From the NCBI GenBank assembly GCA_008632985.1, contig QPGO01000048.1, positions 310,001-374,000 of the forward strand: a stretch of 64,000 nt of DNA. The letters are read 5' to 3'. The notes beneath the pieces were generated by a model, which ran no database searches, was not told the DNA's origin, and was given only the letters and a program-made list of their open reading frames with translations. Numbering within the stretch: position 1 is the stretch's first letter; each line of letters starts with the position of its first letter. Shown piece after piece: positions 2,322 to 64,000 of this stretch. This stretch comes from Psammoneis japonica (taxonomy: Eukaryota). The position numbers and the translations under genes are program-made.

Positions 2322-2580
2322 TGTCTTCGAAGGGGTTGTTTCAAAGCAAGATGACAGCGGCGGCACGAATCCGGCAGGCATTGTGCGCTGTGCGCTACGG
2401 TACACGGGGCGAGGGCGGTGGCGAAGGGCGAAACAGTCCGTCGCATGGACGGACGGACGGACGGACGGAGAACGCGTGGATCATTTTTATCTTTGACACC
2501 TGCTGATCTCTACAGCACTGCTAGCTAGAGAGTAGAGAGTGGCTAGCTAGCTAGAGAGTAGAGCTCTACTCTAGCTAGAG

Positions 2581-14900: not shown

Positions 14901-15123
14901 CACCGCATCTCTGCTGAGAAACGACCACACTTCTGCTTGAACCTCGAGCTCAAGATGGGAGTGTGTCAGGGTGTGAAGTCCTCACAACTCTGCCACTTCA
15001 GTGTTGAGACAAATGTTGAGAATGCCACAGTTTAGTTTGCTGCTCAGTGACGTTGCTGCAGTGCATTGTCACATTTTACATTCTGTTTGTTGCCCCGCCT
15101 CAAAACTCTGACTTAAATCCCAC

Positions 15124-17954: not shown

Positions 17955-20900
17955 CCATGGGAAATGATTGTCCCATGTGTGGCAAACGTTTCCTCCTGAC
18001 TGGTCTTCAACGCCACCCAAGAACTCATCTTCCCTGCTGCAAACTCTCCTTTTCTCACAGCCTTCGTGCCATTTCTTCCCATCAATCAGACACCGCTCAT
18101 GGTGAACAGTTGCAAATGAGAGAACTAGAAGAACCAGGGGATGTTGCTGCCTCTTCTGCCCTTGGCTCTCCTTCCATTGAATTTGTTGCTGCAGGGTCCC
18201 ACTCTAACACCGGGCCAACTCCACAAGGTTGCACGTGACTCAATCCCCAGCTGTTGCGATGCAATCATGCAGTTTTGTCTGTGCCAGAGTTGTGTTGTTT
18301 CCATGACAATGCCGTTTTGCCCCACACTGATGACATTTCAGAATGCCAGTTCCCTGACCATGAAGAGTTTGTTTCCGACACCAAGGGCACTGCTGCCGTG
18401 GTTGCCGAACCAGGCCCTTTTGCTGCACTCAATCAAGTTGAACACCTCTCCACTGACAAGGACCTTGTGGCACCCAAAGTTTGCAACAGCAAAACCATTT
18501 CCATGGCCCGCATGTTGAATCTGTGTCACTCCAAGGGTGCCCCAATCAGCGCAACCAACGAACTTCTGAGAACTGCACAAGAGGAATTCTCCAGTGGTGG
18601 GTTGTCTGTGACCCAACAAATTCCCTCTCCTTGAACTTTCATGTCACAGCTCAAGTCAGTGTTGCCCGGCGTTGTTGCTCCAGTGCTGAAGCAAGTCCCC
18701 CTTGAGTCTGTGTTTGTTGTCAACCAATTCAAAAACAACCTGCCGCAGGAGCTTTCTCCTGGCATCCCTGTGTGTGACTTTTCCCTTCAACTGCAGGACT
18801 TGTTTGACAATCCCCTTTTTGCAGATCTTTCCAATCTCAATGTTCCTCCTGATTCACGTTGGTCTCAGGTGATCTCCAGCAAACCCATTCTAGATGAGAA
18901 TGGTCACTGGGAACTTTGCAATGATGCTGAAATGAAGGATGGAGAAACTTGCAGCAACTCTTTGCATGGCTGTGATGTTCCTGCCACCCCAGGTTGCTTT
19001 CATGTGTTTGTTGTGTGCTGCGCCAACAAAACTGGGAAAGGACAGGTTGCACCTCATTTGATGAAGCCATTTGTTTTCTCTGTGACTCTCATCAAGGCAT
19101 GTGCCCGCCAATGTTTTGAAGCATGGCATCCCCTTGGATTTGTTCCGAAACACACAGGCCACAAAACAAAGAACCCCGTTTTGGGGATGAGTGTCAGAAA
19201 TTGTCACCACATTTTATCTTGGCCTCAAATTTTGACAAACAGTCTCCGGAAGAGAACTGTGATTGAGAAGAGGAAGACAAAGCCGTCATGCATGCAAAGA
19301 AGGTGAAGATGAAGCAGGCAATCCCAACAATTTGCTCAACGACCACGACGAGTCAGCATGTGAATCCAATGAACACCAACCAAATTCACAAGATGATGAC
19401 AAAGAGACTGACACAGAGAAAGCATCTCTGACAGACCACCCATGTTTGTCAGTGCAAGCTGTTGAGTGGTGATGCAGCGCTCTTGGCTGAATGACCAAAG
19501 CTTGGCCAGTGGGAAGTGTGTTGAGAAATCCATCTGTGTCAAGAGTCTGGAACAAATGATTTGTGTCAGTGGGAGACAACTCAACAGAAGAGACCTTCTT
19601 GCATGTCAAGGTCCTCTTGCTGGTGTGCTGACCGGGTTGGAAATGCACACGTTGCCAAGAGAATTTGTCATTGTTTTTGCGATCAAGTCCTGTCAGAAAG
19701 GGAGGGAGATGAGATGCCAAGTGACAAGTGGAACGCAACAATGACATGGAAGGTGCAAATGAATGTGGGGGCAAGGAGAGGGTGCAACCTGGCGAGAAGA
19801 AACAGTGACACTGTTGCTGTGTTGCTGTGCGACATTGTGACAAAAGTGCCGCAACGTGTTGAGAGGATGGGGCTGCAACTCGAGTTGGCACAAATGTCCA
19901 AATCAATGAAAAATGAACACAAAAAAATGGGCAACCTGTTTTTGTTACAGTGTGGTGATTTACATCAAAATTCTGTGTCAATCAAAAAGCAAAATGAGGA
20001 ATGAACATCAAATTTTTGCACTCTGTTTGAGTGATGTGTGAAAAAAAGAGATGCAGCAGTGCATGTCATTCATTGCAAAAAAAAAGGATGCACAAACACA
20101 TGCCCCAATCATTCCATTTAAGAACGCTGCACATTTCGTGGAGAAGAATGCCTTGGCCATTGCCCAATTTACAAAATTTCAATGTTGGTGACTGTGCAGT
20201 CAACTGCCTGTGCAGCTTCAACATCACAATCCAAAATGTGTGCATGATGCAAACAACAGCAACAGAGACTCAGTGCTGGCATCAAATGTGCATCTTCCAA
20301 TTGCAGACAGTGCAACATGCTGGGCAGCCTGGGATGCCTTTGCATTGACGGAAGGCACCCTGAGTGGGAGAATGCTTTTAAAAATGGATGAAGTGAACAA
20401 ACAAATGAGGCAACCCATGCTGCAAGCATTGAGAGAAGCAGCAGATCGAGACAAAATGTTGAAAATGCGGAGGAGTGACAACGGCAATCCCAGGTTCACT
20501 TTGATGTGGAGACACCGGACTGCCAGGCCAGCGCAGCATTTGCAAAGAGACCACATGGTCATTTTCCGGCCGCTCAGTTCACATGGTCAACTGGGTGAAA
20601 ACAGAGTGTGTGCCGACACGCGGAATTTCAATTTTCATGCTGTGGTGGGATTTGTGGATGGTCACAGGTTGAGCTTGCGCAACCATGTTTGGAGAGGTGG
20701 TTGAGCCAGAGCCGTGTCCGTTGCAAGGAACACATGGACAAAGTGACTTTGATGACACAGTTGAGCTGCTGCAACATGGAAATGCCAGTCAGTGTTGTGA
20801 GACAGCTGTCTTCCATGATTTTGGTGGCTTGCAAATGCAGAGACAAAGCTTGCAAGTTCCCAAGAATTGTTTGTGCTCTGCCACCTTGCAGACACGGTCT

Positions 20901-21200
20901 GTTCATCATCAGAGAAAATGCCATGTTGGACATGGTTCATCTTGATGTGCACAACAGAGGAAGGGTTGGCTGGCCTTTTGCGGACAATTGCTGCCCTCTG
21001 ACAGTGAGCAGAGATGTTGCATTTTACAAGAATGTGCTGCTGGGATTGAGGATGCACTGTGCAGGAATGCACGCTGTCCAAGAGGGTTGCATCAGTGGAT
21101 TGGACCAAAGTGTGGAGTGCTTGTTTTTGAATCATGCAAGTGCAGGTTAGAAAGAGCTGGACAGGACATCAAGGAAGGCAGAAGGGCAAGAGCCAGACCA
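17955..21200 (+). pseudogene. Plavaka-family transposase remnant with N-terminal C2H2-like zinc finger
   Basis: CPMCGKRF..GLQRH, 'IPVCDF.LQLQDL', 'CCANKTG' (cf. YxDKT), 'PFVFSV', 'AWHPLGFVP' (cf. AWRPLGFIP), 'RNCHHIL' (cf. RNYH) and 'RQ..R...LTGLE'. Several stops and frameshifts. Confidence 0.75.
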
Positions 21201-21856
21201 GATGATGAGTGAGAATTAAGCTGAAAGCAAGAAATCCTGGCCAGCTGTGACTTCTGCTCTAGAGTGACAAACCCTGGCAATTTTTAATGCAGTTGCAACT
21301 GTGGTCAAACAATGCTCTGGAGGTGTGGGAAACAAGCAAGAGATGGCTAAGAGCATGGGGCCCCAGACGGCAAAGCCAGGTCAGGCAGTTCATGTCACAA
21401 GCCGGCTAAAAATGCAAAAGAGAGTGTTCAGACTGCAGCCCTTTCCACAGCCCAAAAAATAAAATTAGCTTGTGATTTGAAAAATCTGGCATGCAATGAG
21501 ATGCAGTGGCATGGTGCTTCGTGCGCATCATGCAATGTAAAGTGGATGCACAATGTGAAGCAGCAAATGGCAAAAACTGCCATTCAAACAGAGTGCAAAA
21601 TTCATTTGTCAATGTTCAAAAATGACACATTTGAAAATTTTGGCATTCAGAGAGAGAGAGCAATGTCAAGAAGGGCAAACAGGCATGCTGGCAGGCACGG
21701 GTTGGGGTTTGATTCAGAGAGAAAAATTTGGGTGCAACAACACGGGAAAAGGGCAGGCAAACATGTTGGCATGAAACAATTCATCAGGTGCATGCATTGC
21801 GGCAAGAACAGCGTTGATGCACAAAGAAGTTTGCCTGCTGATGCAGATCATGCCAT

Positions 21857-22890
21857 GTGTCCTTCATTGCAGTTGGCGCCCATGACACAGCAGAGACAGG
21901 ACATGCATCCCAGAATGTGGAGATTGCGGGAATGTTGGTTGTCAGGTCGGAGGCAACAAAGAGGAAGTTTGTGGATGGCCAGACAACCAACTGTGTTGCA
22001 ATGGCTGTGTGCCCAAAGACCAAGTTCGTGATGCATGATGAGGTCAAGCTGGCTTTCGGGAGCAAAATGCAGCAAAAGGTTTGCAAACACCTCAATGTTG
22101 ACACCAGTGATTGTGCAGGTTGGTGGGAAGAGAACAAGGAGAAAGTGAGGAAAAGACCAAACAGGAAAAGAAACAACAGGCAGGAGGTTTTTAGAAAGAA
22201 GATGGTTGGCATGTGCAGCGAGGGTGGCGTGCAGATGCAATGGAGCAGTGTTCTCACCCATTGATTCTTGCTCAGAGATGGCTGGACACAAAGGAATGCC
22301 AAGTGTCAAAGAGACATGGAAAAGGGCAGGGCATTGCCACAAACACACTTTTGGTTCTTGGAAAGGTGCTGCTCCCTTGCAGCTGGAATGGAACAATTTG
22401 AGACAGCGGACAACCAAGGTGTCAGCAATTGGCTGACAACAAGTGTGGGGAAGCTCTTTTGCCAGGCTGATGTGTGACAACTGCTGCAACACAGCCATGG
22501 CTTTGAGGGAGATCAAAAAGCAGTTTGAAGAGAGAGGAGAAGTGCAACAGCCAACCCAGCCCCAGCCGATCCAGCACAATGTGGTGGCAGAGGAAGGAGA
22601 GAACAAACTGCAGCAGAGTCAGCACACAATGCCTGCAGACAAAGAAATCAGAGAGCACGCATGGCAAGAAAAGAAAGAAGAAAAAGAAGGATGGCATGAG
22701 GGGATGGGCTGCTCCAAAAACTGATTGGAGTGACAGCAAGGAGGAAGCTGCAGGAAGGAACAACAAACAGGGGAGTGCAGAGGAAGAAACTGCAGGGGCA
22801 GCAGCGACCAACAACAGCACTTTAACACAAATGGGCACTCAAGGAGGCAGAGTGAATGACAACCCACAGAAGCAGCTGAGGATGCCATGA
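21857..22890 (+). pseudogene. Accessory ORF remnant of the type accompanying Plavaka/CMC-like transposases
   Basis: 'VCPKTKFV...WWEENKEKVRKRPNRKRNN' resembles the FPxxKF...W...VR..LNxKRNN domain of such elements (recalled, not searched). Confidence 0.45.
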
Positions 22891-25800
22891 GCACACGGGC
22901 GGCATGACAGCAACATTTGCTGGCATGCAGCAGAACATGATGACAGCAGAGGAACTGACCAGGAATTCAACTCACATCAGCAGCAACAACAAAATGGAAT
23001 GTGAGTCAGGCATTGACTGGAGTGCAATTTTTCACACGGTGAAAAGCGACCAAGTGTCACACTGCAAAATGTTGGGAACATCATCCATGTGCTTGTTAAA
23101 TTTAAAGCACAGTTTGAAAGGAATGTGAGTCTGGGACTGGTCCAAAGGCACCGGCAAATTGTCACACGGCAAAAAGCAGCCAAGTGTTGCACTTGAAAAT
23201 GTTGGGAACATCATCCGCATGGTTGTTGTGTTTAAAATCAAGGACAAAAATCCACCACAGGGAGCTCACATCACCCAGCACCTGTTGGAGATCTCAGCTG
23301 ATTGGGAGCTCAAGTGCACTGAGAAGAGCAAAGGACTGTGTGGAACTCATTTCCAGAGAAATTGAAAGATGTCTTTGACAATTTGACAATGGTGGAAGGC
23401 AAGGAGAAAAGGTCAAATTTGGGCCCAAAGTTTGCAACATGGCAACATGGCAGCCAATCCAATCCATTTTCTGTCTGTCACACAGGATGATTGAGACAGC
23501 CCAGCACAAGCAAGGATTTGCAGGGCATGAGACAACAAAACTCCACAAGATTGCTGCAGTGTGATTGACTGTGTGTGTTTCATGTTTTCTTCAAGGAAAC
23601 TCAGCTGCAAATTGTGCTGGTCACCTCCAGTTTGTGATGAAATTGTCTGAGTCTGACAACCAAAGCAGCAGAGTGACAAAGACAAAAGAGCACATTCTTT
23701 GCCAACAAGAAATGACACCACTTTGGATCTGTCCATGGGGACACTTCCCAACATTGTGCTTTTTTGGCAAAGGGGACCTCCCAGGCAGGGACAGCTGTGT
23801 GTGCCAGTCAGCTGCACATCACCACCTGCTGTGAAGCTGTTGCTGTCCAGGTTTCTGGCACTGTTTGTGTCAGTGGAGGCACCAACACTGGTTTGCTTTG
23901 GCTGCCAAAGGATGGGGAGTCCATCAAAAGTGACAACTTGTGGCCACACACCAAGACCTTGTCACATGTTAAAGCACCCCATGGACCCCAAGAGGCTGCT
24001 TGTTTGCTCAACACACAACTCTGCAAGAAAGGAGCACAAGATGGTCTCTGAAAAAGCAAACTTTGCAGAACAAGAGAAGATTTGCAAACAGGAGGACAGC
24101 ATCTTTTTTGGATGAGACCACACAAAAGCTTGCAGTGAGAGAGACAAAGCAAGGAAAAAGGAAGAGCTGAAATCTGTGTTTTGAGCTGTCAAGCTGTCAA
24201 CATTGAAGACAGCAAGCAGGTTCACAAAAACAATTGCACCCCATGCAAAGGCAGTTTTTAGAGAAGAGATGGTGTCACAGATGGCTGGCTGTCATGCCCA
24301 AGAGCTGGGGCACCATTGCTTGCTGGAAGAGAAGACTTTTGGCTGGGACTTGGGACGAGCTCACAAACCTCACACAATGAAAAAGTGGGTGAACAACTTG
24401 CCATCAGGCACAGCTGTTCTGACTGCAGCATTGCACCCACTCATTGTTCAACATGTTTGTCACCTGACTGACAATCAGATGCTGGAAAACATTGCTGGCA
24501 AGCACTGACAAAAAAATGGGTGAAGGAGAAAGAGGCAGCAATCAACAAACAAAGTGCTGCAACAGGGAGAAAATGCTCTGAATTTGCCCACTGGGCTAAA
24601 ATTTGCAGCGGCACTTCACTCTCCTGACCAGCCAGACATTGAGCCTCTTGTGTTTCTGGGGTGTGCTGGTGCACAGGAGGTGATGCCACAAGGCAATGCT
24701 GGGCTGTCATCTCCAAATGCTGCTGCTGCCACCTGAGACAAGAAAAAAAGGAAACCACTGCCAGCCAGCTTGTGTCATTTGCCACCTTCTGTGGCCATGC
24801 ATGACAGCGACACATTGGTCTCAAATGTGCAGCTGTGTGCTGCAGTTGCTTGCACAACAACCTCAGCAACCTCCTCTTGCACCACAAACTTCACATCTCC
24901 AATGGCAAGGCCACTGACACAGGCAGAGATAGAGAGGAGAGAGCAAGAGAGCATGTGTGAGAAACACAGTGCAAGACAAACTGATTTGAAACTCAATGAC
25001 ATTGAAAATCAGCTCATCTGTCCTTCTCAACTTAAATTGTTTTGACACAATGGCTCTGCCCCATGTTGACAACAACAGCCAGCCACCAACAAGGCCACCA
25101 CAAAAGTCTTGCTCCTGACTTGGACCAATGCCATCATGCCTGCTGTTCACCTTGTGGCTTGGACAACCATCCAAACAGCAGCTCCTGTGCCTCAGCCACC
25201 AGCCACCACCCCCACCCACATTGTTTTTTTTTGTTTGGGAAAACTGGGGCCAGCAGATTGGCTGTTTGGTTCAGAGAGTTGGCTTTGGTTGATTTTTTTT
25301 GCATTCAAACAGTCTCTTGTTGTGACCACACACAAAAACAATTTCTCTTCAATTGCATCTCTGTGAAGGTGCCAATGGAAAAAAAATCAGGGCATTGCTG
25401 AGGCAAACTGAGGGTGGTTCGCACATTGGAGACTGGGGCAGAGGTGATTTTTGACACATTCTCTGTGTGGGCCATTGTGTGCTCTGTTGCAGCCAAGGAA
25501 ATGCTCTCTTCAAAAGCACACCTGCATTCATCATTCAATGTGAGCAATTTCATCATCAAAAAATCTTCTGGCACATGCAGCCAATCCACTGAGCCCAAGC
25601 TCTGCTTGCCACACTTGACAAAAAAATGTTTCTTGTTCATCAGAGAGAAAGGAGATGAAGGACTCAACCCTCCAGCAAACCCAAACTCAAATCAACAACA
25701 GCAAAAAGTTGACTTGTGTCACACTGGCAGACAAGCTGTTGGAAGATGAAAGCACATTTTGTAAGTTCTTGGTCCTCTCAGATGAGACAAACTTAGAAAG

Positions 25801-27289
25801 AGAGTTTCTGAGCTTTCACAAAGGAGAGTCACAAGGATGGATTTAACCAGTGGGCAACAGAAGACATGACAGAGCTCATGTTTGCTGTGTTTGGTGCCTG
25901 TTTCCTGTCACATCAAAAAAATCATTGAAACTTCCAGTGCTGTCACATTTGGCAGAAGCACAACCAACTGCTGTTTTTTCATTAACTCAGCTGACAAAAG
26001 GCCATGTCAAAGGCTCAAATCTGTTCTGTTTCAGTTGTGCACTCAGAAGATGGACAACACATGGGTGCCAAAGGCTCTTTTGGCATTTCAAAACAGCAGC
26101 TTCTTGACAGGTTGTTGAGAGGATTGGCTCTGTAAGTCACCCAACTTTTGCCTCTGCCAACAGAGCAAATGGCTTTCTCCAGCTGCAGATGTTGACAAAT
26201 TTGCACATTCACAGCACAAAGTCAAAGTGCTGCAGTGGCAAGGATCAGGACAAAGCAGATGGCAGAAAAGGAGAAGAGAGCACACAGAGCATCTCAAAGC
26301 TGAGCACTCGGTGCCAAGTCATGAACAATGAAGTGCACTTGTCACAAAGACATCATTGCACCCAGGACAACTTCATCAAATTGGGGAAACTTGCATTGAC
26401 ACACCTAAAATTCATCATGCTTGCACACAAAACAGCACACGAAGTTGCTGCATTTGTCAATGAGACAAGTGGACCATGTCAGAGAAACAAAACACCATTG
26501 CCAAGAAAACATGAGAGCACAAAATGGTCAAGAAAATGCCATGATGACATGGACTGAAGCACTTCAGAAGCCAACTGGAGAAGTGAAGCCCAGAAGAAGA
26601 CTGCCTCTGCCAAAAGAAGCTGGTCATTAAAAACCATTCATGCTTGAGCCATTTTTGGCCTCCACCAAGCAGCAGAGCCAATCTCTCAAGCTCTGCAGCT
26701 TTCAAACAAGAACAGCTGAAAGGAAAGGTGGAAGCCGTGGAAGGAAACCCCAAGGAGAAGAAACAATGGAGCATCGCAAATGCCAGATCAGGTGCAAAAA
26801 ATGTGTGATGACATGAGGTGTGGTGTGCCAAAATTGAAAAAGCAAGTTTCTGTGGGGCGTGCATTGGAGCCTGGAACAAGCACAAAAAATGTGCTCAAAT
26901 GTCACAATTCAGTGTGTGGCACCATTCTCCACAAGGTGAAACACAATGGGTGCATGACATGTGTGCCAACACAGAAGAAGAGCAGGGTTGAAACTGCAAC
27001 TTTTGGCTCTGGAACAAAAGAGTGAAATTGACAAAATCAGAGGCTGCTGCACCAAGAAGGCAAAGGCTGTCAAAAGCTGAACCAGGAACAAAGAGAAAAT
27101 CAAGCCGAAATGTCAGATCTCAAATGCACGGCATTGTTCTTTGGCACATTGAAAAAAATGTGTCAAAGAAAAGGGTTCAGAGCTGCTGCTTCTGCCCCCC
27201 CAGAAATGCCCTCCACTTTGCCAAAGTGCTGCCTTTGTTCAACTCCCAATCTCAAGTCCTGTCAACACTCAAGCTGGAGCTGACAATGC

Positions 27290-27900
27290 AAAAATGAAAG
27301 ACACCTGCACAAAGTTGATGTGTGGCACTGATGGAGGTTCTGGCTGGCCATGGACTTGCAAGGGAGGCCAATGCTTTCTGAAACTGCTGCATTGACAAAG
27401 GTCATTGGAGCTTGATGTGCCACCAAAGAAGAAGAAGAAGAAAAATTGCAAACTTGGAAAGCACCACAACAAACTTGCACTGCAGCAAGTGCTCGCAGTT
27501 TGTGAGCAACAAGTGTTGTGAAAAAGCAAACAGACTGCAAAACTGGGGGAGAGCAAGAGGCAACAAAAAGCAACACTTGTGCCAATGCATTTGGGCACCA
27601 ATCTGCTTCATTTGCAGTGCCACAAAGGCTTTCAGAAGTTGATGCATGATGCAGCACACATTGGCTGGCATTGCTGGTGCAATCAAGAGAAGCAAATTCA
27701 CAGAGGGCATCTTTCACAAAGTGGTTGGGTTGTGATGGATGTGCAATGGTGGAAGGTGAGTGTGCTGTGCATGTGCTGCACTGGCAGCTGACAGATGCCA
27801 GCACACATCCTGTGGTGACACAACCGTCTTTGAGGTGGGGGTTGGAGGAGCAAATGTGCATGTTGCCTGCACAGCTCTTGCATTTGTTTTGCTGAGCAGA
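27290..27900 (+). pseudogene. Ulp1/C48 cysteine-protease-like remnant
   Basis: 'GHWSLM...KIANLES' (cf. HWxL...I.xLDS) and downstream 'GECAVHVL' (cf. DCGVYV). Confidence 0.45.
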
Positions 27901-30900
27901 CACCATGTGTGGGCACAGCTGCACATCAGCTGCATGCCAACCTGCATCAGGAAGAGGTCATGCCTTTGACCAGTTCCTGCCAAGATGAACTTGGAGCAAA
28001 GCCTTTTGTTTGTTGATGAAGAAGTTTGTGTGTGAGTGCAAAGTGAGCACACAACTCACATGACCAAACACTTCTTAGAGGAACACACCAACTTAGAAAT
28101 TGTTCCACAACTGCTGTCAGCAGCAATCTTCTTTGTGGCTGGCTCTCAAGTTTGCTGCCAAATTTGGCACATGAGACACAGCAACATTGCTCCTGCAAGT
28201 GTGCAAAAAACTGCTTGAGCCAACTTGCACCACACAGCAATGCTTGTCAAACTGCCTGCAGCTGCAGCCATGAAAAAGAGGAGTGCTCCTTTTGCTCCCT
28301 TTGGTGTCCTGAGAAGAAAAGCTGCAGAAAAGTGGGCACCACCAGTTTGCGCACAAGCTGCACAGCTCTCCCACTGACAAAAACAGTCCAGCACTCAAGT
28401 TGAGTGTGCCACACCAGCTGCAGTGCTGGAGCAAGCAAGGGGTGGACATTCTTTTTTCCAAACTCTGTGCACATCATGGACAGAGACAGAACATTGAAGC
28501 CAAGCTGGAGAGGTGCCTGCTTGTGTGCAAGCTGTTGGGGGAAAATGCCCTGACTCTGCACTCAAGAACAACAAGCCAGCAGCCAGAAAATTTGCCACCA
28601 AGGCAGGGGTCAGAGCTTTGCAAAACAATGCACAGACACTCCTGTGGCACCAAAAGCATCTTCATCAACAGGAGAGCACAGCACAGAAGTGCTGTTTGGG
28701 GCATTTTGTGCAAAAGCCTGCAGAGATGACAAAAACTCAGGACCATGTTGCAACAATGGCAGTTGAGTTGAGAGGCTGCTCAAAGGATGGAAGATGGGGA
28801 TGATGTGCAGCCCCTGACAGACAGCGAGTTGGCAGACTTGTTTGAGTGCAGAGTGCCAAGCCCTTCCTTGGGGCAGCACTGCGCATGGCTCTCCAGGGCT
28901 TCAATCCACTTGCTTGCACAATTTCTGAGCTTGTCTCATTTTGTGAATGAGTTGAACAAGTTGAGGCTGCCAAAGGCAGCTAAATGGCCAAGGATGAGAG
29001 AAGATTCTGCATGAGCATGGGTGCAAAAATGACAACCTGAGGTGGCTTGAAGCCGGTGGCAAGCAAAATGCAAAGTTGCACACTCTGCACAATGGCGCCA
29101 GCTGTGGTCTTTTGTTCCTAGAATGCTGCACTTTTAAGTGTCTGGTCAAAATGATCAAGGCCAGTGTGTGTTTTCAACCAAGTCAAAAGAAAAAGAAAAA
29201 TCAAGAGCTGAGTTCTAAATGGCCAAAGCAGCAGTCTCAAGAATGCACTGCCTCAAGACAAAAAGAAACCCAAGCCAGAAGTCAACTCTCAGGACTTGAG
29301 CTGGTTCGATTCTCTTTCACTCTGCAGCGCAGTTGTGAGAATGAGCTTGCTCAAGGTTGTCATGCCTGAGAAAAAGGCCAACACAACATGCTGAAAACTT
29401 TGGCAGCAGTGCAGACAAATGTTCATGTCCCAGTGCTCAGCTGAACTTTGCTGGAACTCGTGTTGCAGCAGGCACACCAAGAAAATGGCAAAAAGCACAA
29501 GAAGCATGTTGTGTTGGATCTGCCCCATTTGCAGCCTTGAATGATGGGCATGGCAAAGGCACAACAATGTGAAAAGCTTCTGTTGGGCAGTGGAGCGCCA
29601 GTGGGGCTTGAGCTGATGACAGGAAGCACCAGAAAAAAAACTGCAGCTTCTGCCAAGAGATGTGCCAGAATGCTGATCTTGCCAGCTCTTTCTCAACAAA
29701 CAAGCAAAGCATTGTTGAGCTGGTGACACCAGAGATGTCTGATGTGCCATGCTGTCAAACCAACCAGCTTGTTTGCAATCCAGCAGAAAGTTTGGCAACT
29801 GTGATGTGATTGCCAGCCAAGGTGCTTTGGAGAGCTGCAAGGTGTTGACACACATCATCATTTTCTTAAAACAAGTGTTGTCAAATGGCTGGTGGCCAGT
29901 GAAAAAATGCCAGTGTAGAGCACAGATGCCATTGCAAAGACAACAGATGTTGTTCCCCAATTTCTTTGGGAGTTGGGCATCCCAAAAAAGTGACAGTGAG
30001 AGAATTTTGGCCATTGCTGCAGCACAAAGTGGTGTCAGCCAGCAGATTTGCCTCAAGTCAACAGAGCTGCCAAAAGTTTGGACAATTTTTAGAAGTGAGA
30101 GTTGCCAGATGTCACATCCCATGTCATTCTGTAAACCTGGCCATGCAGGTGTCCATGACCAAGGAAGATTGTCCACAACAGTTGAGCCAAATTCAAGCAA
30201 ATGAGGTCCACAGGCAATGAGCTCTGCAGTCAAGCATGCACAGCCTGGCTGCATGGTCATTTTAGACCCAGCCCAGGACATGGAGTTGGGCAAAAGGAAG
30301 ACCCCTGCGGAGCAGTGCACTTGCAGTGTGGTTGCATTTGCTGTGCTGAAAGCTGAGGTGCACACTGAGGACAGCAAACCAAGCCCAGTGCAGCTGGTGT
30401 TTGGCAGGGATGCCACACCAAATGTCGCCAACTCTTGCACCAAATGGAAATGCACTTGCAGGACAGAAAGCAGCAGAAGCTTGTTTGCTGCACAAACAAT
30501 GAGAGAGAGAGAGAGAGAGCTCCAAGCACAGAGAGTGGGTGTCGATGCACTGTGCAGAGCACTTGGTGCTTGCCAAGTGGGGACAAAAAACAACAAACCA
30601 CAGGGCTGACTGTCATGCAGGTTTTGTCAACAGACCAGCTCTGCAGATGATGGTCAGACCCAGAGAGCCAAGCAGATGTCTCTTTGAGATCTGCCTCTCT
30701 TGCTCTTTTTCTTGTGCTCAGACACATGTCATCACTGTCACAGATTTGTGAGAAGCAAGCCATTCTTGCTGGTTGTGGGGCCTTGAAATTCTGTGCTGGG
30801 ATCTTTGAGTTGATTGTCAGGTTGTTTTTTTTGCTGTTTTGTGTGCACAAGCCAAATGAGCCTGCCTCTTTCTTTGACTTTTGCAGGATCTTTTGGTTGA

Positions 30901-31400
30901 CATTTTCCAGGATGCAGGACAACACTGGCGAGTTTTTGCACATGCATGTCAAACTTTTTTTGAGACAAAACACCACCACCCAGAGCCACGTTGCCAAAGA
31001 TTGAGCACTGAAGTTGACCCCACAACCCCGCTCTTTTCTCAAGTGATTTGTTGCAAGAGCTCCAACAGCATGCTCTGCAGCAGGGCTCTCACAGCCCCCC
31101 CCCCCCTCCCCATCTTCTTTGCAGGTGAGAGGATGCATTTTGCACGGGCTCAACACTGGATTTGGGTGATTTTTTTGTGACAGTTCCAGCTGCACCAAGC
31201 CCAAGGAGGACTTTGCTCAGTGCTCTTCTGCAAGTGTGTTGTTCACAAAGGCACCTTTCCCGTGACAAAAAGCAGGCAGGAGAAACTCCTCTTGTTGCCA
31301 GAGTTGTCCTGTGCAAAAATGGTGACACCATGCGCCACATGCACAAAAGACGGTGCATGACTGACAGGCATGCACAATCTGTGGCAGATGCCCCCCCCCC

Positions 31401-32088: not shown

Positions 32089-32360
32089 CTCACGAACGAA
32101 ACACCCACGCCCCCCGCACACGCTAACCGCTAACGTCTCCGTTGACACTACCGGTATGTCTCTTTTGCGCGATGATGCAAAGCGACGATCATGCCGCTCT
32201 CGGCGGTCTCCATACTCTCGTCAATACCGTGACAACAACACTTCTACATAGTGCAACGGAATGTACCGGTATGTATTGCTGTACTGTACCTTTTATCAGT
32301 ACGACTGGGCACTTCTGAATGTTGGGGAGCGTTGCGTTATCGGTATGTCGCAAACGTCCG

Positions 32361-51026: not shown

Positions 51027-51589
51027 TACTGTACTCTCTCCATCGTGAGTTTGTGTGCGAAGCGCGCTCGGTGTACGGTCGACGCATAGACTCACGATGG
51101 AGAGTGACGTACCGCCCGGTAGTAGGCGTGCAGGCCTCTACTAACTTTAGTCGGGGATAAAATGTCCGAAATTTATGAACATTCTATAGCTTTGAACATC
51201 CCATAAATGTTAGCTTTCTATGTGTTTTGGCGGGAACCGTGTACTAGAGAGTAGGGCCCTCCCCTCCAGAAAAATGCGACCTCTCTCGAATCCGTTGACC
51301 ATGCATAATGTATCACAAAGAATTTTGAATTTCCCGATTCAAATAACACTTAGAACTTCCCTCCATTTTTCCTTTCCGTTGGCGAAAACGTTCTCGACTC
51401 CACCCAGTCTTCAGTCTTGTCGAGCCCCTCAAGTCTGTGGAGCGCAGCGCGTCGCGACATCGCGAGCCTTTTTTCGGAATTAGTAGAAAGTGTGCTGCAA
51501 TCTACACGGGAGTGTCTCGCTCAGAGTTCATTCTCCCCAGAAAAAAAGCTCATTTTTCTTCGATTGTGAAGACGAACAGCTCCATCACC

Positions 51590-56030: not shown

Positions 56031-58064
56031 CAAGACAAGAGGCAACAACAGAATCACCGTAGTCTTGGCCATCTATGTCGTGCTGCCAATCTCCTTGTTG
56101 GGTGGAGGTGTGACAGAACGTGAGGAGGGGTCCGTTTTGGATTCGATTGGCGCGCAGCATGATCTATGTTGCTCAACGCCGTCATTTTCGCTCGGAGCTG
56201 TTTCTTTTGCTCGATCAGTCGATCAAACTCTTCGTGTCTTTCTTGTAATCTTCCCTCTGCCAACACTGTGCTTTTTGGTGACGAACGTGAAAGTGGCGAT
56301 TGACAAATCACCGGACGACGGTCAGCACACGGCAGAGAATTTCAGTCCGTTCGCAGATGAAACCATTGTCATTCACTTGATGAAAGGGACTAAAGCATAT
56401 GCTATCTGGATGCTACTGAGCACAAAAACCAACGTCCGCATTTTGAAAAGAGAGGATAGCAGTTCGCCGACAGGCAGCTATTAAAATGGGTCGAGGTCAA
56501 TCCGAAAAAATAAATCCAAAATGAATTTCCAAAATCGGATCGAAGTTCAAGTTGTGACGTAAGCATATGTCCTACGTCAGCAGTTACAGTAGTTGACCAG
56601 GAACACTCACGAAAATGTCTCCAACAAGGACAAATGCGACATTTCGTATTGTCATACGACAATTAGGTACTGTACATTAATGCGGTCTTTTTTGTTCATT
56701 GGATGACTTCGTTAAATGATCATTTTTTGCCAGTTTTTTTTCACATTTTGACAACATCGCCAAAATCGCCAATGGCATTAAGTTATTTAGGGATATATGC
56801 GATTCACATGTGTGAATTTTTGGCGAAGCTAGACAAAGTGAGACAAAGTTGGCGATTGGCGATCAATCCAACGGCCAATCCAACGCATCGAAAGCAAGAA
56901 ATTCGGACATTTCACTTGTGTCGACCGCAGTGCAAAGTGCAAAGTGCGAAAAACAAATGTGTGCCACTGCGTGTCGGCAACTGGCAATGCAAGTTGCTCT
57001 TGTGCCAGCTTTGGCAACAATGCTGCCGGCATCAGCAATGCTGCTGGCACTTCTGCTGCAGCACAATGCTGCTGGCACCACTGCTGGTGTCGACACAGCT
57101 CTGACACTGGCTGATGTCATCGACAGTTTCCTGCCTGGCTCAGCGAGCCACCACTGCACTGCAGCAGGAGTCATGGTCGCCCCGCTTGCTTGTCATGAAG
57201 TTGGCCGGGGTGGGGCCAGTTGGTCGTGCATGTTTGGGTTCGATGCAGCCGTGCAACCAGCCATGCCTTGCAGGCAGAGCTGTGATGTTGATTGCACCAT
57301 GTGATTTTTTCGGACATGAGAAGAGTGCGCTCTTTAGATGCTTCATCTTCAGAGCAATGAACACATCTCCTTCATCATCCGACACTTGAGCAAGGATGTC
57401 ACGGAGCGGGTCACGGAGTTGCTCACCAAAGGATTTTCCCGACCCCTCCTCCCCGCCCCCACTCCTCACAGCCAGATGCAGTCTCAGTGCATTGTGCACT
57501 CAGACTTGTCATGTCCTGAAGATTGCAAACGACATCATCATCACCCAACCTTTTCAGATTTGAATGAAAACATGAATCGCATCAAACATGCAAGATTTGT
57601 CTTTGCTTGAATGCGTGTTTTGTCAAAACACAGCAGCGCGCAGTTGGGAGCGCAGCACCAGTGCTCACATCAGGAGCACAGGCGCTTGCACAGCATCGCA
57701 GTGAGCAACGTGCACTTTGCTGCATGCTGGAAACGGCCGTTTCTCCCACCACAAACAAACAAACATCGTCAACATGGAGCACCTCCAACAATGGCCATTG
57801 CCGCTGAAAATGAGCACTGTCGATGTTGTGTTGATGCCATTGGACCTGCTGTTGTCAACACAAAAACTGGCTCACAATGAAAACAAATGAGAATGTTCTC
57901 TTGAGCCGAAATGTGTTTCTTCATTCTCACATTGTTCTCAGTGAGTGAATCAAATTGCTCCACTGCATTTGACGGAATCCATTGATTCAATGCATTTTTT
58001 GGTTTGCTCAACTTCTTGTTCTCCTTTGATCTTTGTCCACATTTCCACAGGAAAATGTCGCATC

Positions 58065-58250
58065 ATGCTGGGCAGCTCAAGTTGACACCACTTCAAACGG
58101 GGCGGTTCAAGCGGATGCCAAATCATACGAGGCCACTCAAGCGGATGCCAACACCTTGCTGGGCAGCTCAAGTGGACACCTGCACCTCACTGGGTGACTC
58201 CAGCAGATGCCAACACCTTGCTGGGTGACTCAAGCAGATGCCAACATTGA
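58065..58250. repeat. 30-31 bp tandem repeat x6
   Basis: CTCAAG-like anchors at ~58076, 58106, 58136, 58167, 58198 and 58229. Confidence 0.8.
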
Positions 58251-58619
58251 ATGTTGTGTGGAGTGGTCCAAGGGTGAGGAGCATTTTTCATTTTAAAATC
58301 TGCAATCTGCCACTTTTGGGAAAGTCCCGACACAAAGGGCAGACGAGGTTGCTTTCGTCTCTGACAATTGCGAGCAACTGTGCCGAGTTGGCTGACTGCA
58401 GCGGCGCCTCGGCAATTTTTTTCTGCAAGACGGCCTGCGAGAGCCAAGGGGTTGCTCCCCGGCGAGACAGAGAGTGGCACCTCCAAGGAAGGGGGTGCCA
58501 CTCGACGTGCCATGACCCGAATCTCAGTTGGATGGGGTTTGCCTGCCCTGAAAGGTGGTGATTGGTTGTTTTCAAGGAATGCAGCAGGATGGAAGGACAA
58601 AACAGCTGGATTCAATTGA

Positions 58620-61600
58620 TCTGCAGCACAGAATGGTTGTCGAAAAGCTTGGATGGTCATGCGGAGTAGGACGTCTAGACGCCTCTCCTCCTGCGGACGC
58701 TTGTCCATTTTCTTGTGCTTGCACACCTTCTTGCAAAGTCGATCTTGCGCAATGCCATCGACTGATCCAATGTCTGAAAGGCTTTGGGCACGGGAAAAAG
58801 CAGTGCAGGTCAAACCATGCTCCTTCTCGCGGTTGGACAAATCGACGACAAAATGGGACTTGATGGTTTGGCCTTGAGCTTTCCACCAAACAGTCATCGC
58901 CCAGCAAAGCTTCAAGGGCAACACAGCACGAGCATGTTCACACAGCCCGCATCATCTCGCTTTTGAGTGCACATGGCTGCAGTCACAGGGTGAATTGGTG
59001 CCCAACCTTGGTGACTGTCATCGTCAGGAAAAAACGATCCTCCACCGCAGTCTCTGCCAAAGTCAACCCACACAAACTTTGGAAGAGATGGAGCCAAGCC
59101 TGATTCGTCACACACAATGTCCTTTGCTGTCCCAGTTGCTCCATTGCACAATCCCGCCAACTGAGCAACATTCATGGCAAGCATTGCTTGTGCTCCGACG
59201 CTGAGGTGCGCCGAATTCTCCAAGCCTCGAAAGGAATCGGCCGTCTTTTTCTTGCCATCACCAGCATTTTTAGCTCGCACCAGAGCAATGGGCTTGCCAA
59301 GCGTCTTAAGATTCTTGTTGTTGAATTCTTCCACTTCAGAATTGGTCGTGAACAGATGCGGCGTTCCATCATTTTCAAACCCCGACTCATGCCATTTGTA
59401 AAGACCCATGGAATGTCGTGAGCACGTGCGTCGCAGCTTGACCCAGTCCGCTTCTGTGCAATTTCCATCATGAAGACGCTCTGGGAAGCCACAGAACCAA
59501 ACTGATTTGGGATCGTTGGGGTCGATGCGATTGTTTTTTGTCAGCTTGATGACCGTGTTGAACATTTGGCAGAGATTGCCTCTGTTTCGATCATCATTGC
59601 TTGCAAACCCAGTCGCTTCCCACAAACAACGTCCTCCTGCTGGTGGCAACTGTCCAGGATCACCAGCCAATGCCACAACGACTCCGCCAAATGGTTCGTT
59701 GACACCTTTGATTTCACACAATCTCCGGTCGATGTGATGAAGCTCTCTTTGACGCAGCATCGAGAACTCATCAAGATTCAAAAGCTTGAGATTTGCAAAC
59801 TTGTCTTGAGCTTCAGCAAGATTTTTGTTCGTGAGAGGACGACAACGTCTGCCAGAGAGGGGCATTCCCAGTCCTTCTTGGTGAGAGTGAACCGCAGATC
59901 CACCAATGACCATCGCAGCCTTGCCTGTTGCAGCCACAAGAGCACAGCTGCTTGTCGGAAGTCCACGGTCCTGGAGAGTGGCAGCAACAGCATCAACAGC
60001 AAATGATTTTCCTGCACCTCCCATCCCAACAAGGAGAGTGCACTGTCCCTCACTCTCTCCAACAACAGCACTTGCAATTGCATCGTGAGCTGGACGTTGT
60101 CGTTCATTGAGCGAGTTGAAAGAAACTTGACTCCTTGCAGCTTGATCGACGGGGTTAGACATGAGATGATCACACTTTCGCTCCACTTCCTCGTCCCATC
60201 CATCACATTCCGGACAGTCATGCTCGAGTTCTGAAAAATCATGATCCTCTGACCATTTGAGATTGCTTCCAGAGAAAGAGCTGACGCATCGTCCATCTGC
60301 GTGGCATGCCCCACATCCATCCAAGAGTCTTGGCTTGCATCCGTTGAACCAGATTCCGAGTCGTCACCCATTGGCGCGTCAACGTCATCATTCACGCCGT
60401 TCCTGTTGGGCAAGCGCAAGCTCGATTCAATCTCGCGTTGAAGGAAACCAGGAATTTGTCAACCTTGTCGCGTCAGAAATGGAGCATGCTGGCTCCAAGC
60501 ACGGATGACATCGTCATTGGATGCGTTGGCGCCACCCCAAGCAGATTCAAATGTGCCACTCCATGGTTGATGCTTGGTCAATGAGTGCTTGCAGTGCTTG
60601 ACAAAGTTGGGACCTCCAGGAGAACTTGGGACTCGAGGTGCAAAAATGGCCACCGTGTTGGGTTTCTGGTGGCAGCAGATTTTCTTCTTGTGCTTTCCCG
60701 ACTTGCCAACATAGAATCTAGCGGCAAATTCTTGTAGAGTGAGGTCTCTAAGTCCTGGCTCAAAGGCTGCAAAAACTGAACAATCGGCCCAGGCTTCTTG
60801 GTTGAGGCGTGTGGCGCATGCATCAACGACCGTCGGCATTGCAGCAGAATCCGCTCCTGCATCGGCGCCAACGTCTCCATCAGAAGGATCACCCAACTCC
60901 TCCAGGTCAACTTGCCCAGTGGCATTTTCGAGATTGACAGTGACAAAGGTGTGGGAGCAAGAGACAAGAGGCAAACTTAAAATGAGATGGCGCGTCTCCT
61001 GTTTGGAAACCATTCGCTCGCCTGTTCAGGGCAACCATTTTGATTCATTCAAAGAACGAACAATGCACTGTGAGTGGAAATGTAAAGTCACACAAGGATC
61101 AAATCAAAACTAGACGCACCCAAAAGCTTGGCCATTGCACTCTTCAACGCTGCCTGTGCACTGCATCCATCATCGATTTTCTGCTCCACTGTTTTGTGAA
61201 CCATCGCGGTCATTCGCATGGACGGCATGCTGGATTCAGACTTGAAGACATGCTTGGTCATGTGCTCAACGACCTTGCCGGCATCTGCAACAAGTCGGAA
61301 ATCAACATTGGCTCTCCAAACCTTGAACATTGGGATGCAATGACTGTTGATCCACTTGTCATTGCGTGCCGACACCATTTCCATTCTTGAGACTTTTCGG
61401 GTCTCTCCAGCTTTGTTCTTGACAAGCTCCTCTACAACAACCAGACGAGAAATTCTTGAAAGCTGCAAAGGACATCCAAAGCAACAGTCCAAAATGTGTT
61501 CATCTGCTTTTGCCTTGTCGCACTTGGACTTGTTGCGGTCACAGCAGCCGCTGGGCTTGCATGCACGCCGTTCCACCGCGTTGCATGGATTGCAGCAGTT

Positions 61601-63904
61601 GCCAGTGCGGTCATCTCTCGTCATCTCCAGCACATCTTGAGGCCTGTCATTGCTTGGGTGCACTCCATCCACCCCGGGACGAAACTTGGTGGACTCTGGC
61701 CGCTCGTCGGATGTGGCATCTTCTGGAGGGCTGGGGTGAAACGCAGAGATGAGAAAATCATCAAAGGCGACAACCACGTCTTGTGCCTCCTTTCCATCTC
61801 TGACAGCTTGCAGCATCTGTTCAAAAGAAAGCTCCTTGTCATCTTTGCATTCAAACTCCTCTTCATGTGTGTCCAGTTCACGATCCTCCTTGGCAAAATC
61901 GTCATCCTCATCCAGTGGACCTTGTTGGCACAGTTTCAAAGCAGCCAATCTTCCTTCCAAAATAACCTGTGACAGGTCTGTCAGCCCCGGGTCAGCCTCC
62001 AGTTGCAAACATCCATGAACATGAGCGGTGCCGCGGGCTTGGCATTTGATCCAAAACCAAGTCCAGCTTGTTTTCATCCCATTCTTTCCAAAGAAGCTCT
62101 TTGTCATCAAATTGACCCGTTCTTGAAAGAAGGCGTCAACAATGTGAGGGTCATCTAAGACAGCCTTGCGACAACAGGCGGCTTTCTCTTCTTCTGAAAA
62201 CTCTTCACAGCCAGAGTTGCAAATCAACAAGGCGCGAAGGTCCGCCCAGTGGTTGTCGGTGGCTGAAAAAGCAAACCATGATGCAGGCATTCCGCACTGG
62301 TCTGTCAGAGCCTCGAGCTCCTTCTTCTTCTTGTAGAAATGCGAATCGCTGCCTGGGATGTTTGCGTTGAACTTTTGCATGTTGGAAACAAGTTCTTTGA
62401 AGCGCGGCCCATTCTCTTGCACTGCATGCTTCAGCTCTTCCTCGGTGAGCTGTGCGTCTTCTGGGCACTTTCGCAGGTGTGCTTTCTTTTGATCCTGGTG
62501 ACGGTGCCGAGTGGCAGCATTCTCGGCCCAATGCATGCACCGATTGTGGCATGCAAACGGACACACCCACTCTCCCTCCTTGTCATCAAAATGGGCATGC
62601 TGCAGCAAGTGCTTGTTTGCCTCCGCCATGGCAACATTGATGCGGCGATCGTCACACGTGACATCCCCGTTGCCGTGCGGGAAGAGAGCAGGAAAGGCTG
62701 GGCTTTGAAGCCAAGGAAAGGTGCAGTCATTGATGGGCTGGCCGTTGTTTTCAATCTCTTGGACGACGGAAGCAGGATCAAATCGATCGTGGAGAGTGCT
62801 AGAAATTTCGGCGCGCTGCTGACCTGGATGAGGGCCAGATGGCAGACACCCAGATGCGACATCCTCACCCTCCTGTCCGCTTGCCCCGCCTTGTTCTGGA
62901 CCACTTGCAGCAGCATCTTGGTCTTCACTTGCATTGCCTGCTGGCTCACTCTCATCTGCAATTGATGACATAGAATCCGCAACTGATCCATCCTGTGGGA
63001 GCAACAAAAGATTGTCCAGGTTGATGTCGATGTCACAACAGCCTGGATGATTTTCCTTCAGCCAGACAAGCCATTCTGCAACATTGTCGCGGCGAACCTG
63101 AAAGTCTTTGCATCCATTTGGTGTCCTTTGGTTTGGCTTTCGAAGGACAAAAACTGGCAAGTCGGAAACCTTGAGTGGAAGGCTCGCAATGACTTCGTTC
63201 ACATCCTTTTCAAGATTCACGACGGATCCTTTGCACCCGACTTGCCCGGACTGAAGGCAACAGCACTTCATGACAGTGTGAGCACAAGCAATGAGCATCT
63301 CTTCAACCTCAGATGGCTCGGGCAGGTGTGCAGGACGTCCCTTGGTGCAGACATCCATGTCATTTGCTGCAGAGAAACAACTCAAGCCATGCTCCTTGAC
63401 ATCCTTGGAACAAGCAAGGCACTGCTGCGGGTCGGACTCATTCATGTTCAAGATGAACCAGTGCTTCTTGCAAGTGGCACACCACATCATTTCTGTCTTT
63501 GAAATTCCGTCCACAAATTCATCTTGACAAGCTTTCATCTGTGGACCAGTCAAACAAGAGTGAGAACGATTGAAGAGGAAAGTGACGACAATCAACATCG
63601 TGTCTCTTGCATCGGAGTGGTCTTCTAGATTGACACCTGGATGCTGGCCGTCCCTGCAAGCTTCAAAACATTCAACAAGAGAAGAGGGTGGAACTGGAGG
63701 GTCATCAGAAGAGGACGAAGTAGATGACGATGACGAGGAGGAAGACAACGACAAGGACGAGGAAGGGTCATTGTCCATCGATTGCCTTTTTCGTCTGTTT
63801 GCTTGTTTCATTGCTTGGCGGTTTTGCAGCCTTGCTTCTGCCATTGACATTCCTTTGAAAAATCTGGCTTCTGCATTTGATTGGCGTTGTCGAGCCCTTG
63901 CCAT
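58620..63904 (-). pseudogene. Helitron Rep(HUH)-PIF1 helicase, mutationally inactivated; intron 61119-61022
   Basis: AFPALFPHG.GD, F..SA.D.HW, 'CQARGTAHVHG' (HUH) and 'HMTKH' (cf. YxxKY). PIF1 motifs GMGGAGKS, DEFSM, FGG...GDPGQLPP, GLCNGA.G, KAQGQT and AFSR. Stop at 60459; frameshifts near 60260 and 58930. Confidence 0.93.
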
Positions 63905-64000
63905 TTCTTGCCATTCTTGAGTCGACAGGTGATCTCGTGCTCGTGCTTGAGATTGCTCCTTCCTTCCATTCGCAACTCTGTGATTGTTGGTGGAGGAATC

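Follow-up and report, generated by a model that had tools for sequence, protein, structure and literature searches.

A 64,000-nucleotide stretch of the Psammoneis japonica genome (contig QPGO01000048.1, positions 310,001 to 374,000; the whole stretch is referred to here as the window) carries a copy of a Helitron, a DNA transposon, whose Rep-Hel gene has lost nearly all of its tyrosine (Tyr) codons, including the two for the catalytic tyrosines of its HUH-type nuclease. The loss goes together with a depletion of the dinucleotide TpA that runs through the whole element and through other discrete blocks of the window and is accompanied by an excess of CpA and TpG. Judged from the sequence, it is very likely that a block-limited mutation process, in which TpA is changed to CpA or TpG, caused the loss of tyrosine. 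The evidence at the level of the protein, the dinucleotides, and the other copies of the element is presented below, together with the chemistry that could underlie the process.

Tyrosine codons of the Rep-Hel gene

The Helitron copy is recognized by its coding part, in which an HUH-type Rep is followed by a Pif1-family helicase, the domain order of Helitron Rep-Hel proteins (the parts are listed in Table 1). P0001, a relative of 1473 amino acids, is colinear with the window in four pieces that cover its residues 2-1459 (61118-63148, 60426-61022, 58960-60261, and 58655-58963) at 37-49% identity. The locus resembles the canonical eukaryotic Helitron Rep-Hel in the order DUF6570 - Rep - Pif1 and in being colinear with relatives of 1,400-1,500 amino acids. 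In contrast to the canonical Helitron, which has two catalytic tyrosines, the copy has histidine (His) at both catalytic positions, and to read Rep-Hel in full, the frame must be changed three times and two internal stops, both TGA, must be crossed. It is because of these frame changes, internal stops, and catalytic His residues that the locus is an already broken Rep-Hel gene, that is, a relic and an inactivated copy of its family. An earlier note on this DNA, made before any database search, had described the reading frame as left open; this holds across Rep, whereas the full Rep-Hel reading is interrupted by the frameshifts and the TGA stops. All three stops in the Rep-Hel pieces, including the one that closes Rep, are TGA. 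No RNA run is listed as carrying the stretch, and the RNA runs are silent on expression.

The Rep frame contains a single Tyr (TAC, 62335-62333), 33 His, and 46 cysteine (Cys) residues among its 938 amino acids, and the whole Rep-Hel reading contains 3 Tyr in 1,672 residues versus 40 in the 1,473 of P0001. The single Tyr of Rep, to which the earlier note had pointed, is confirmed, and it falls well below what is seen in a set of 153 relatives, 3 of which came from a word-indexed protein search (3 matches, at most 47% identity) and 150 from a second collection. Every one of the 153 relatives has a Tyr content of at least 1.12% (median 3.31%), and at the rate of the lowest relative, the probability of one Tyr or none in 938 residues is p=3.6e-4.

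The 153 relatives were aligned on the window by tblastn, and a conserved-Tyr column was defined as one with at least 15 relatives aligned and Tyr in at least half of them. At the 19 such columns, the window has Cys in 9, His in 6, phenylalanine (Phe) in 3, tryptophan (Trp) in 1, and Tyr in none. Among 441 consensus columns, 82% of the non-Tyr residues are kept and 0 of the 19 Tyr (p=5.6e-15). In the relatives themselves, the conserved-Tyr columns comprise 1309 cells, of which 942 have Tyr, and the 367 replacements are mostly Phe (158, followed by Trp 36, His 32, leucine (Leu) 26, and Cys 24). His or Cys occupies 15 of the 19 columns in the window versus 56 of the 1309 cells in the relatives (p=9.7e-18). 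The replacements at conserved-Tyr columns are therefore mostly His and Cys and not random, as had been anticipated.

Both catalytic tyrosines are replaced by His. The two-tyrosine motif YxxKY reads HMTKH (CAC at 61264-61262 and CAT at 61252-61250), and the relatives have Tyr at these positions in 70/70 and 69/70 cases; both codons follow G, and the opposite strand would formerly have read T-A-C there. The motif had been pointed out at the outset, together with three others of which two stand. The EYQxRG position reads CQARG (TGC, 62044-62042) in a column where 115 relatives include 49 with Tyr, 39 with Trp, and 14 with Phe, and where the nearest relatives have Tyr. The helicase motif YxAxSR reads CTAFSR (TGC at 58807), and 71% of 17 relatives have Tyr at this position. 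The remaining one, FPHG (CAC at 62677), had been taken for an FPYG that lost its Tyr. This is not borne out: the residues in this column vary (of 132, 45 have Y, 18 F, 16 T, 13 N, 9 D, and 7 H), and FPHG is likewise present in P0001 and P0002, which are the nearest relatives.

The direction of change can be followed codon by codon. Among 94 substituted consensus columns, 29 are reachable by TA->CA or TA->TG alone, and these comprise Tyr to Cys (9), Tyr to His (6), threonine (Thr) to alanine (Ala) (5), valine (Val) to Ala (4), Leu to proline (Pro) (3), isoleucine (Ile) to Val (1), and asparagine to aspartate (1). Several of the changes are side effects at other amino acids. Val is changed to Ala in 5 of 26 columns, with GCA as the codon in 4 cases, and Leu to Pro in 3 of 69 columns, all CCA; both are in excess over the relatives (p=0.0096 and p=0.00088, respectively), as the earlier note had predicted, although its third prediction, for Ile, failed (see below). 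Thr is changed to Ala in 5 of 18 columns, all of the form T|GCN in which the preceding codon ends in T, and this too is in excess over the relatives (p=4.9e-6). Along the 29 sites (17 TG, 12 CA), the outcomes form 14 runs versus ~15 expected, i.e., there are no strand-coordinated tracts, with the caveat that detection is biased by codon type. The direction TAY->CAY/TGY, which had been proposed from codon chemistry, is supported because the relatives have Tyr at the affected columns, because TpA is lost while CpA and TpG are gained (see the next section), and because the predicted side effects are present.

Depletion of TpA and its sequence preference

In the host-gene background of the window (32.4 kb), the observed/expected (o/e) ratios are 0.65 for TA, 1.12 for CA, 1.13 for TG, 1.01 for CG, and 0.93 for AT. 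The corresponding ratios, in the same order, are 0.06, 1.59, 1.52, 0.64, and 0.93 in the Helitron block (56831-64000); 0.10, 1.56, 1.57, 0.80, and 0.86 in 13055-17000; 0.05, 1.74, 1.92, 0.15, and 0.74 in 17001-31400; and 0.02, 1.77, 1.82, 0.20, and 0.79 in 2577-4108. The Helitron block contains 24 TA in 7,170 bp versus 307 expected at host-gene density, i.e., ~92% are gone. Falls in this block are limited to TA and, mildly, CG; AT, AA, and TT are as in the background, and the GC content is 0.51 versus 0.485. Stop words decrease from 36.1 to 25.4 per kb per strand. Both strands are hit about equally: there are 720 CA and 669 TG in the Helitron block, and Tyr to Cys and Tyr to His changes both occur on the sense strand.

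Two other sources of transitions were considered and rejected. GC-biased gene conversion is ruled out by the unchanged ApT, ApA, and TpT. Deamination of a single-stranded transposition intermediate, or a process that acts on a single transcript strand, is ruled out by the about equal effect on the two strands.

The depleted blocks have sharp limits. At the edge of the Helitron, 31 TA lie in 56000-56830 and are followed by just one (57335) before 58126. The 500-bp profile and the TA positions place block edges within tens of bases, with steps also at 2576/2577 and 4108/4109. The ~1.8-kb non-coding tail of the Helitron is depleted as fully as the coding part. The depletion is regional, encompassing the whole element and other blocks, and is no property of the Rep gene alone.

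It could be argued that the whole genome is subject to an untargeted TpA>CpA/TpG bias, such that TA persists only under selection and dead elements drift to a TA-free state. The TpA o/e of the host genes is already only 0.65, and every clearly TA-normal stretch of the window bears genes, as such a bias would have it. It is nonetheless quite improbable, since intergenic DNA beside the blocks is TA-dense (25 TA in 56391-56830, and 4109-4472 is similar), a 1.5-kb island within the TA-poor zone has a TpA o/e of 1.05, and the block edges are as sharp as described above. Moreover, 92% of the TA in the Helitron has been lost versus about a third of the CpG, and 1,450 residues of the protein can still be aligned, at 37-49% identity. 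Because the loss of CpG is modest and the protein still alignable, the loss of TA has run far faster than general decay, and within this one element, TpA has been lost more quickly than CpG.

The decay of methylated CpG, i.e., the deamination of 5-methylcytosine, also gives an excess of CpA and TpG and has left its mark on the blocks, where the CpG ratio is 0.64 for the Helitron and 0.15 for the 17-31 kb region. It yields His and Cys from arginine (Arg) CGY codons, but it cannot remove TpA or convert Tyr, and what the relatives have at the affected columns is Tyr and not Arg.

The TA sites that survive point to a sequence preference. Surviving TA from the four blocks with strong depletion were combined and classified, for either strand, according to which base lies 3' of the A. 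A purine at this place is found on both strands at 61 of the 100 sites, on one strand at 37, and on neither at 2, versus 263, 702, and 426 in the host background (chi2=106, p=9e-24). The 24 survivors in the Helitron fall into the same classes as 13/10/1, which differs from the baseline in the DNA of the relatives with p=1e-4. Density in the depleted blocks relative to host genes is 2% for TAT, 6% for TAC, 13% for TAG, and 23% for TAA, and about half of the expected TTAA sites persist in the blocks, which have no ATAT. Since the surviving TA mostly have a 3' purine on both strands, the preferred target looks like T-A-Y, that is, a TA that has a pyrimidine after it on one strand or on both.

The tyrosine codons can be sorted in the same way. 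All 6 Tyr codons that became His follow G, with T-A-C on the opposite strand, whereas all 5 Tyr codons that follow C, with T-A-G on the opposite strand, became Cys (Fisher p=0.044). All Tyr codons are TAY, and Tyr is the sole amino acid with TA-initial codons. Tyr codons would thus be ideal targets, and the special exposure that the earlier note had attributed to them is strengthened by the T-A-Y preference at the surviving sites.

The DNA of relatives suggests that TA poverty is not native to the Helitron family. Over the matched gene, 46 metagenomic relatives have TpA o/e ratios of 0.24-0.95, none near 0.06; these loci were found with a small alignment query whose main pattern includes the catalytic tyrosines, and the set is biased toward intact copies. 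A single-protein query for close relatives of Rep in metagenome contigs gave 26 pattern matches, of which 0 were confirmed. It is extremely unlikely that the element was TA-poor from the start, be it through native or foreign composition or through avoidance of a TA-cutting nuclease or a TA-targeting transposon. Besides the range in the relatives' DNA, the catalytic tyrosines that practically all relatives possess are His here, so the protein is not the working form, and other copies from the same sample keep TA at some sites.

As a separate observation, two metagenome contigs from other samples (L032 and L033, short Helitron relatives) have TpA o/e ratios of 0.35-0.43 and CpG ratios of 0.30-0.37, with CA/TG at ~1.5. 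These two contigs could represent copies from other organisms that have been mutated in part.

Other copies of the element were sought in one public run, X1, which contains 66% of the sampled words of 57001-64000. A total of 691 contig pieces from X1 lie on this interval at 80-100% identity, many of them on the non-coding tail (149 pieces at >=99% identity, 143 at 95-99%, 217 at 90-95%, and 182 at <90%), and in this one sample, the Helitron thus appears to be repeated in the genome. Among the 779 places where the pieces differ from the window, 599 are transitions. At the level of single sites, the comparison covers 40 of 805 difference rows. Transitions account for 36 of the 40, and 24 of these 36 fall in CA or TG steps of the window. 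There are 9 single sites with TA in other copies and TG or CA in the window, 5 single sites with CG in other copies, and 5 double differences in which one copy has CA and another has TG. Because some sites have TA or the alternative product in other copies, the change must in part, at least, postdate the separation of the copies.

The double differences would also fit a sequencing or assembly artefact, in which silenced DNA contains a modified adenine at TpA that is taken for G and reads from opposite strands of a doubly modified TA give CA in one contig and TG in another. In some long-read assemblies, modified bases do lead to systematic errors in base calling. However, modification of one strand would leave about half of the reads with TA, yet 92-98% of the TA is gone, and along one sequence the sites show a fixed mixture of CA and TG that depends on context. 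The X1 contigs, which are built from exact 31-letter words, contain the quoted two-thirds of the words and include the 149 near-identical pieces, and the pieces span many identity classes instead of two strand-specific forms. Such an artefact is therefore highly improbable.

Possible chemistry and comparison with known systems

Based on these results, it appears that the element very probably reached its present state as follows. After the Helitron, which is dead and present in multiple copies, had inserted into the nuclear genome of a diatom, a mutation process would have run through it and turned TpA into CpA or TpG by A:T to G:C transitions, either at the T or at the A, on either strand. 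The process is limited to discrete blocks, sparing adjoining host genes and intergenic DNA, and is near completion in the Helitron, with ~92% of the expected TA lost. A Tyr codon TAY would become TGY (Cys) if the A of the sense strand is hit and CAY (His) if the A of the opposite strand is hit, and both catalytic tyrosines of the HUH nuclease would have been removed by these changes. The stops TAA and TAG would likewise be removed or turned into TGA, CAA, CAG, or TGG; as a result, only TGA stops would remain and frames would stay long. The chemistry is more tentative: adenine in DNA would be converted enzymatically to hypoxanthine, which is read as G at the next replication, and the cell would direct this deamination at silenced or foreign DNA as a defence.

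Adenine deamination is the favoured mechanism, with a chance that we place slightly below even. Enzymes of the TadA/ADAT type naturally act in the context of a 5' U/T and of U-A-C in the anticodon loop of tRNA. Somewhat more tentative still is the proposal that diatoms possess an active defence which is the reverse of fungal repeat-induced point mutation (RIP): a DNA adenine deaminase would act on transposons or silenced DNA, change T-A-Y to T-G-Y on either strand, leaving hardly any TA, and thereby selectively erase Tyr codons, and with them transposases and recombinases that depend on tyrosine, together with TAA and TAG.

The same pattern and targeting could arise if it were the thymine of TpA that is modified, to 5-hydroxymethyl- or 5-formyluracil by a TET/JBP-type enzyme acting on silenced DNA, and then mispairs with G to give T>C; the motif would in that case be R-T-A. 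TA>CA and TA>TG are strand mirror images, and all of the dinucleotide, context, and codon counts fit a modified thymine equally well. Both 5-hydroxymethyluracil in dinoflagellates and base J at the telomeres of kinetoplastids sit at T before A, and 5-formyluracil favours A:T>G:C. On the other hand, 5-hydroxymethyluracil paired with A is weakly mutagenic, and the sole study of the same signature (described below) prefers adenine deamination, itself without proof. A modified thymine is thus considered rather unlikely.

Changes made in RNA are a further candidate. An ADAR-like enzyme would hyperedit A to inosine in double-stranded transcripts, and the edited copies would be written back by reverse transcription; the two-strand effect could then reflect double-stranded RNA. 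This is hardly credible. Helitrons move as DNA, without an RNA copy step, and the ADARs form a metazoan family. Moreover, the effect extends through the non-coding tail as far as the sharp edge of the element. ADARs do favour a U on the 5' side of the edited A, according to the discussion of a preprint (bioRxiv 10.64898/2026.01.13.699255, Discussion).

The TpA-specific change has one close counterpart. To our knowledge, a cellular process with a specific action on TpA, converting it into CpA or TpG in chosen parts of a genome, had not been described before 2026. The only matching process that we found was described in an unrelated alga, Bigelowiella natans, on integrated giant-virus and virophage DNA (Mettrop et al. 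2026; bioRxiv 10.64898/2026.01.13.699255). As stated in the main text of that preprint, 231 of 302 nuclear mutations in mutation-accumulation lines fell in two integrated-virus regions; 230 of these 231 were A>G or T>C, and all of the GC-biased ones were on TpA. The rate was ~1000-fold over baseline, and only in some lines. Coding sequences that are TpA-poor and CpA/TpG-rich were enriched in DDE and reverse-transcriptase domains, and an ADAT2-like adenine deaminase is named there as a candidate only, the enzyme being unproven.

As far as the main text of the preprint goes, the two cases are alike in that TpA>CpA/TpG is the only change, both strands are affected, discrete non-host regions are hit, and TpA-poor, CpA/TpG-rich sequence is left behind. 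They differ in host and target, which are a chlorarachniophyte (a rhizarian) and viruses in B. natans and a diatom (a stramenopile) and a Helitron here. The TpA ratio is 0.45 in the nucleocytoplasmic large DNA virus (NCLDV) region of B. natans, whereas the process is near completion here (0.02-0.10), and the changes were seen live in B. natans, whereas A>G and T>C at TpA are concluded from end states in the window. Relative to that text, the preference for a 3' pyrimidine and the consequence at the protein level are new. It makes no mention of Helitron, tyrosine, CpG, trinucleotide, diatom, or stramenopile, and its supplements may hold context data. In full-text literature searches, nothing on a process of this kind in a diatom came to light. 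The process described for the alga would thus be extended here to a second major lineage.

The RIP of ascomycete fungi is similar in that dinucleotide-specific transitions riddle repeated or transposon DNA, kill genes, are copy-specific, and have sharp limits. It is opposite in direction: RIP changes CpA/TpG to TpA (C>T), produces AT-rich DNA, and creates stop codons, whereas here TpA is destroyed and stop words become fewer. Fungal RIP as such was rejected for the window, in which TpA is lost, CpA and TpG are gained, and AT is not enriched (see the GC contents above).

Several points weigh against a TpA-specific process that the cell directs at such DNA. Ile to methionine (Met) or Thr, for which the earlier note had predicted an excess, occurs in 0 cases, and Ile to Val, Thr, or Met shows no excess over the relatives (p=0.49). 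A control over dinucleotide rules is confounded, with AC>GC explaining 24 and AT>GT 22 of the 94 columns, and other rules at most 6; these two counts are high because they overlap with TAY>TGY and GTA>GCA. The baselines for sequence context are host genes or distant relatives instead of the true ancestor. The other copies all come from a single sample, possibly the assembly's own source, and their site-level comparison is restricted to the 40 rows given above. Targeting by the cell is concluded from one 64-kb window. Discrete regions with a spared host, as in B. natans, are found here too, but a mobile origin is demonstrated for the Helitron block alone. The sequence by itself cannot separate deamination of the A in T-A-Y from modification of the paired T in R-T-A. 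Finally, mutation accumulation in another diatom, Phaeodactylum tricornutum, has a GC->AT bias with no TpA effect in the part of the report consulted (PMC6604790). If the process is real, it would not be evident in every diatom, or it would be inactive on uniquely mappable DNA.

A process of this kind would have practical and evolutionary consequences. The same signature, near completion and on a DNA transposon of a diatom, would make diatoms its second lineage; they are ecologically dominant and genetically tractable, so that a search for the enzyme becomes practical, and the preference for T-A-pyrimidine is a constraint that any candidate enzyme must reproduce. Enzymes with a catalytic Tyr, such as the HUH Rep here, would be disabled by missense changes while their frames lengthen. 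Tyrosine recombinases of other mobile elements also rely on a catalytic Tyr. Affected regions would yield long, tyrosine-free, Cys/His-rich false open reading frames (ORFs) that escape domain searches. If true, the presence of the process in a stramenopile and a rhizarian would point to an old and widespread algal defence in the SAR (stramenopile, alveolate, and rhizarian) group and not to a one-species oddity.

Other features of the window

Table 1. Parts of the Helitron copy and other TpA-depleted blocks of the window. Coordinates are window positions.
Feature	Coordinates	Strand	Basis and remarks
Helitron copy, TpA-depleted block	56831..64000	.	5' end of the element lies beyond the window
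Rep frame, 938 amino acids, DUF6570 and Helitron_like_N, 1 Tyr	61088..63904	-	Pfam (DUF6570 E=5.9e-21, Helitron_like_N E=5.8e-20) and ORF; 37% identity to P0001 over 704 columns
Two-tyrosine catalytic motif YxxKY, here HMTKH	61250..61264	-	codons and relatives
Rep-helicase linker, other frame, 1 internal TGA	60426..61022	-	tblastn high-scoring segment to P0001 residues 676-862, 38% identity, frame -3
PIF1-type helicase, N-terminal part and core, third frame	58960..60261	-	Pfam (PIF1 E=1.6e-20 on ORF 58912-60324) and high-scoring segment to P0001 residues 916-1358, 37% identity
Helicase C-terminal part with CTAFSR, past a further frame change and TGA	58655..58963	-	high-scoring segment to P0001 residues 1358-1459, 49% identity
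Non-coding 3' tail, ~1.8 kb, equally TA-free	56831..58654	-	TA positions and sequence
Larger TpA-depleted block, nearly CpG-free from 17001	13055..31400	.	dinucleotides; ends in assembly gap
Small TpA-depleted block beside host GBP-type gene	2577..4108	.	2 TA vs 66 expected
Partly TpA-depleted block with 180-bp tandem repeat	9495..11573	.	17 TA vs 89 expected

Helitron termini are 5'-TC and 3'-CTRR after a hairpin, with insertion between A and T. The tail of the copy ends at CTAG (56828-56831), beyond which TA density is normal. A palindrome upstream of this CTAG folds no better than shuffles (z=-0.76), and since the nearby palindrome is not significant, the CTAG is only tentatively assigned as the 3' end of the Helitron. 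A 50-bp inverted match with 92% identity (13660-13708 versus 57196-57245) connects the Helitron tail with the beginning of the large TA-poor block, and hints at a Helitron-derived fragment within that block.

The 14.4-kb part of the large block from 17001 to 31400 is strongly skewed in AT and GC around 20-30 kb and borders an N gap (31401-31640). Across 9.4-31.4 kb, none of 66 ORFs of at least 110 amino acids reached the Pfam cut-off; 65 have no Pfam match, and 1 has a sub-threshold match to CCP_MauG (17.3 versus 25.6 bits). The two longest frames in TA-poor blocks other than the Helitron have low-complexity translations, and comparison of the window with itself gave no pairs resembling long terminal repeats or terminal inverted repeats. 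An old transposon pile and an integrated virus are possibilities for the origin of 17001-31400.

The tandem repeat in the partly depleted block (9518-10010) consists of 2.7 copies of 180 bp with 87% identity. Between this block and the large one lies an AT-rich island (11574-13054; GC 0.386, TpA o/e 1.05, CpG o/e 1.23) that has 127-145-bp repeats in common with 9115-9382 and could be a young, untouched insertion or a protected sequence. A stretch of ~510 bp with 1 TA (51503-52014), located in ORF 51437-52372 (no Pfam match), is without an excess of CA or TG and may be due to chance or may be a small affected fragment.

The stretches with normal TpA bear host genes, namely a GBP gene, a sphingomyelinase-like fragment, and MFS, MATE, and zf-UBP genes. 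The MATE-type ORF (40357-42054) has 469 matches, and every organism-named one among the 120 listed is from a diatom, with at most 66% identity; the zf-UBP ORF (32959-34842) has nine named diatom matches, with at most 57% identity. The window is thus diatom nuclear DNA. The GBP-type GTPase (821-2405) is read in two overlapping frames (821-1678 and 1539-2405), each with a part of the Pfam GBP domain, and this split points to an intron or a frameshift. Just past the assembly gap, 31643-32804 contains inverted and direct repeats of 50-450 bp and is CpG-rich (60 CG in 32001-32500).

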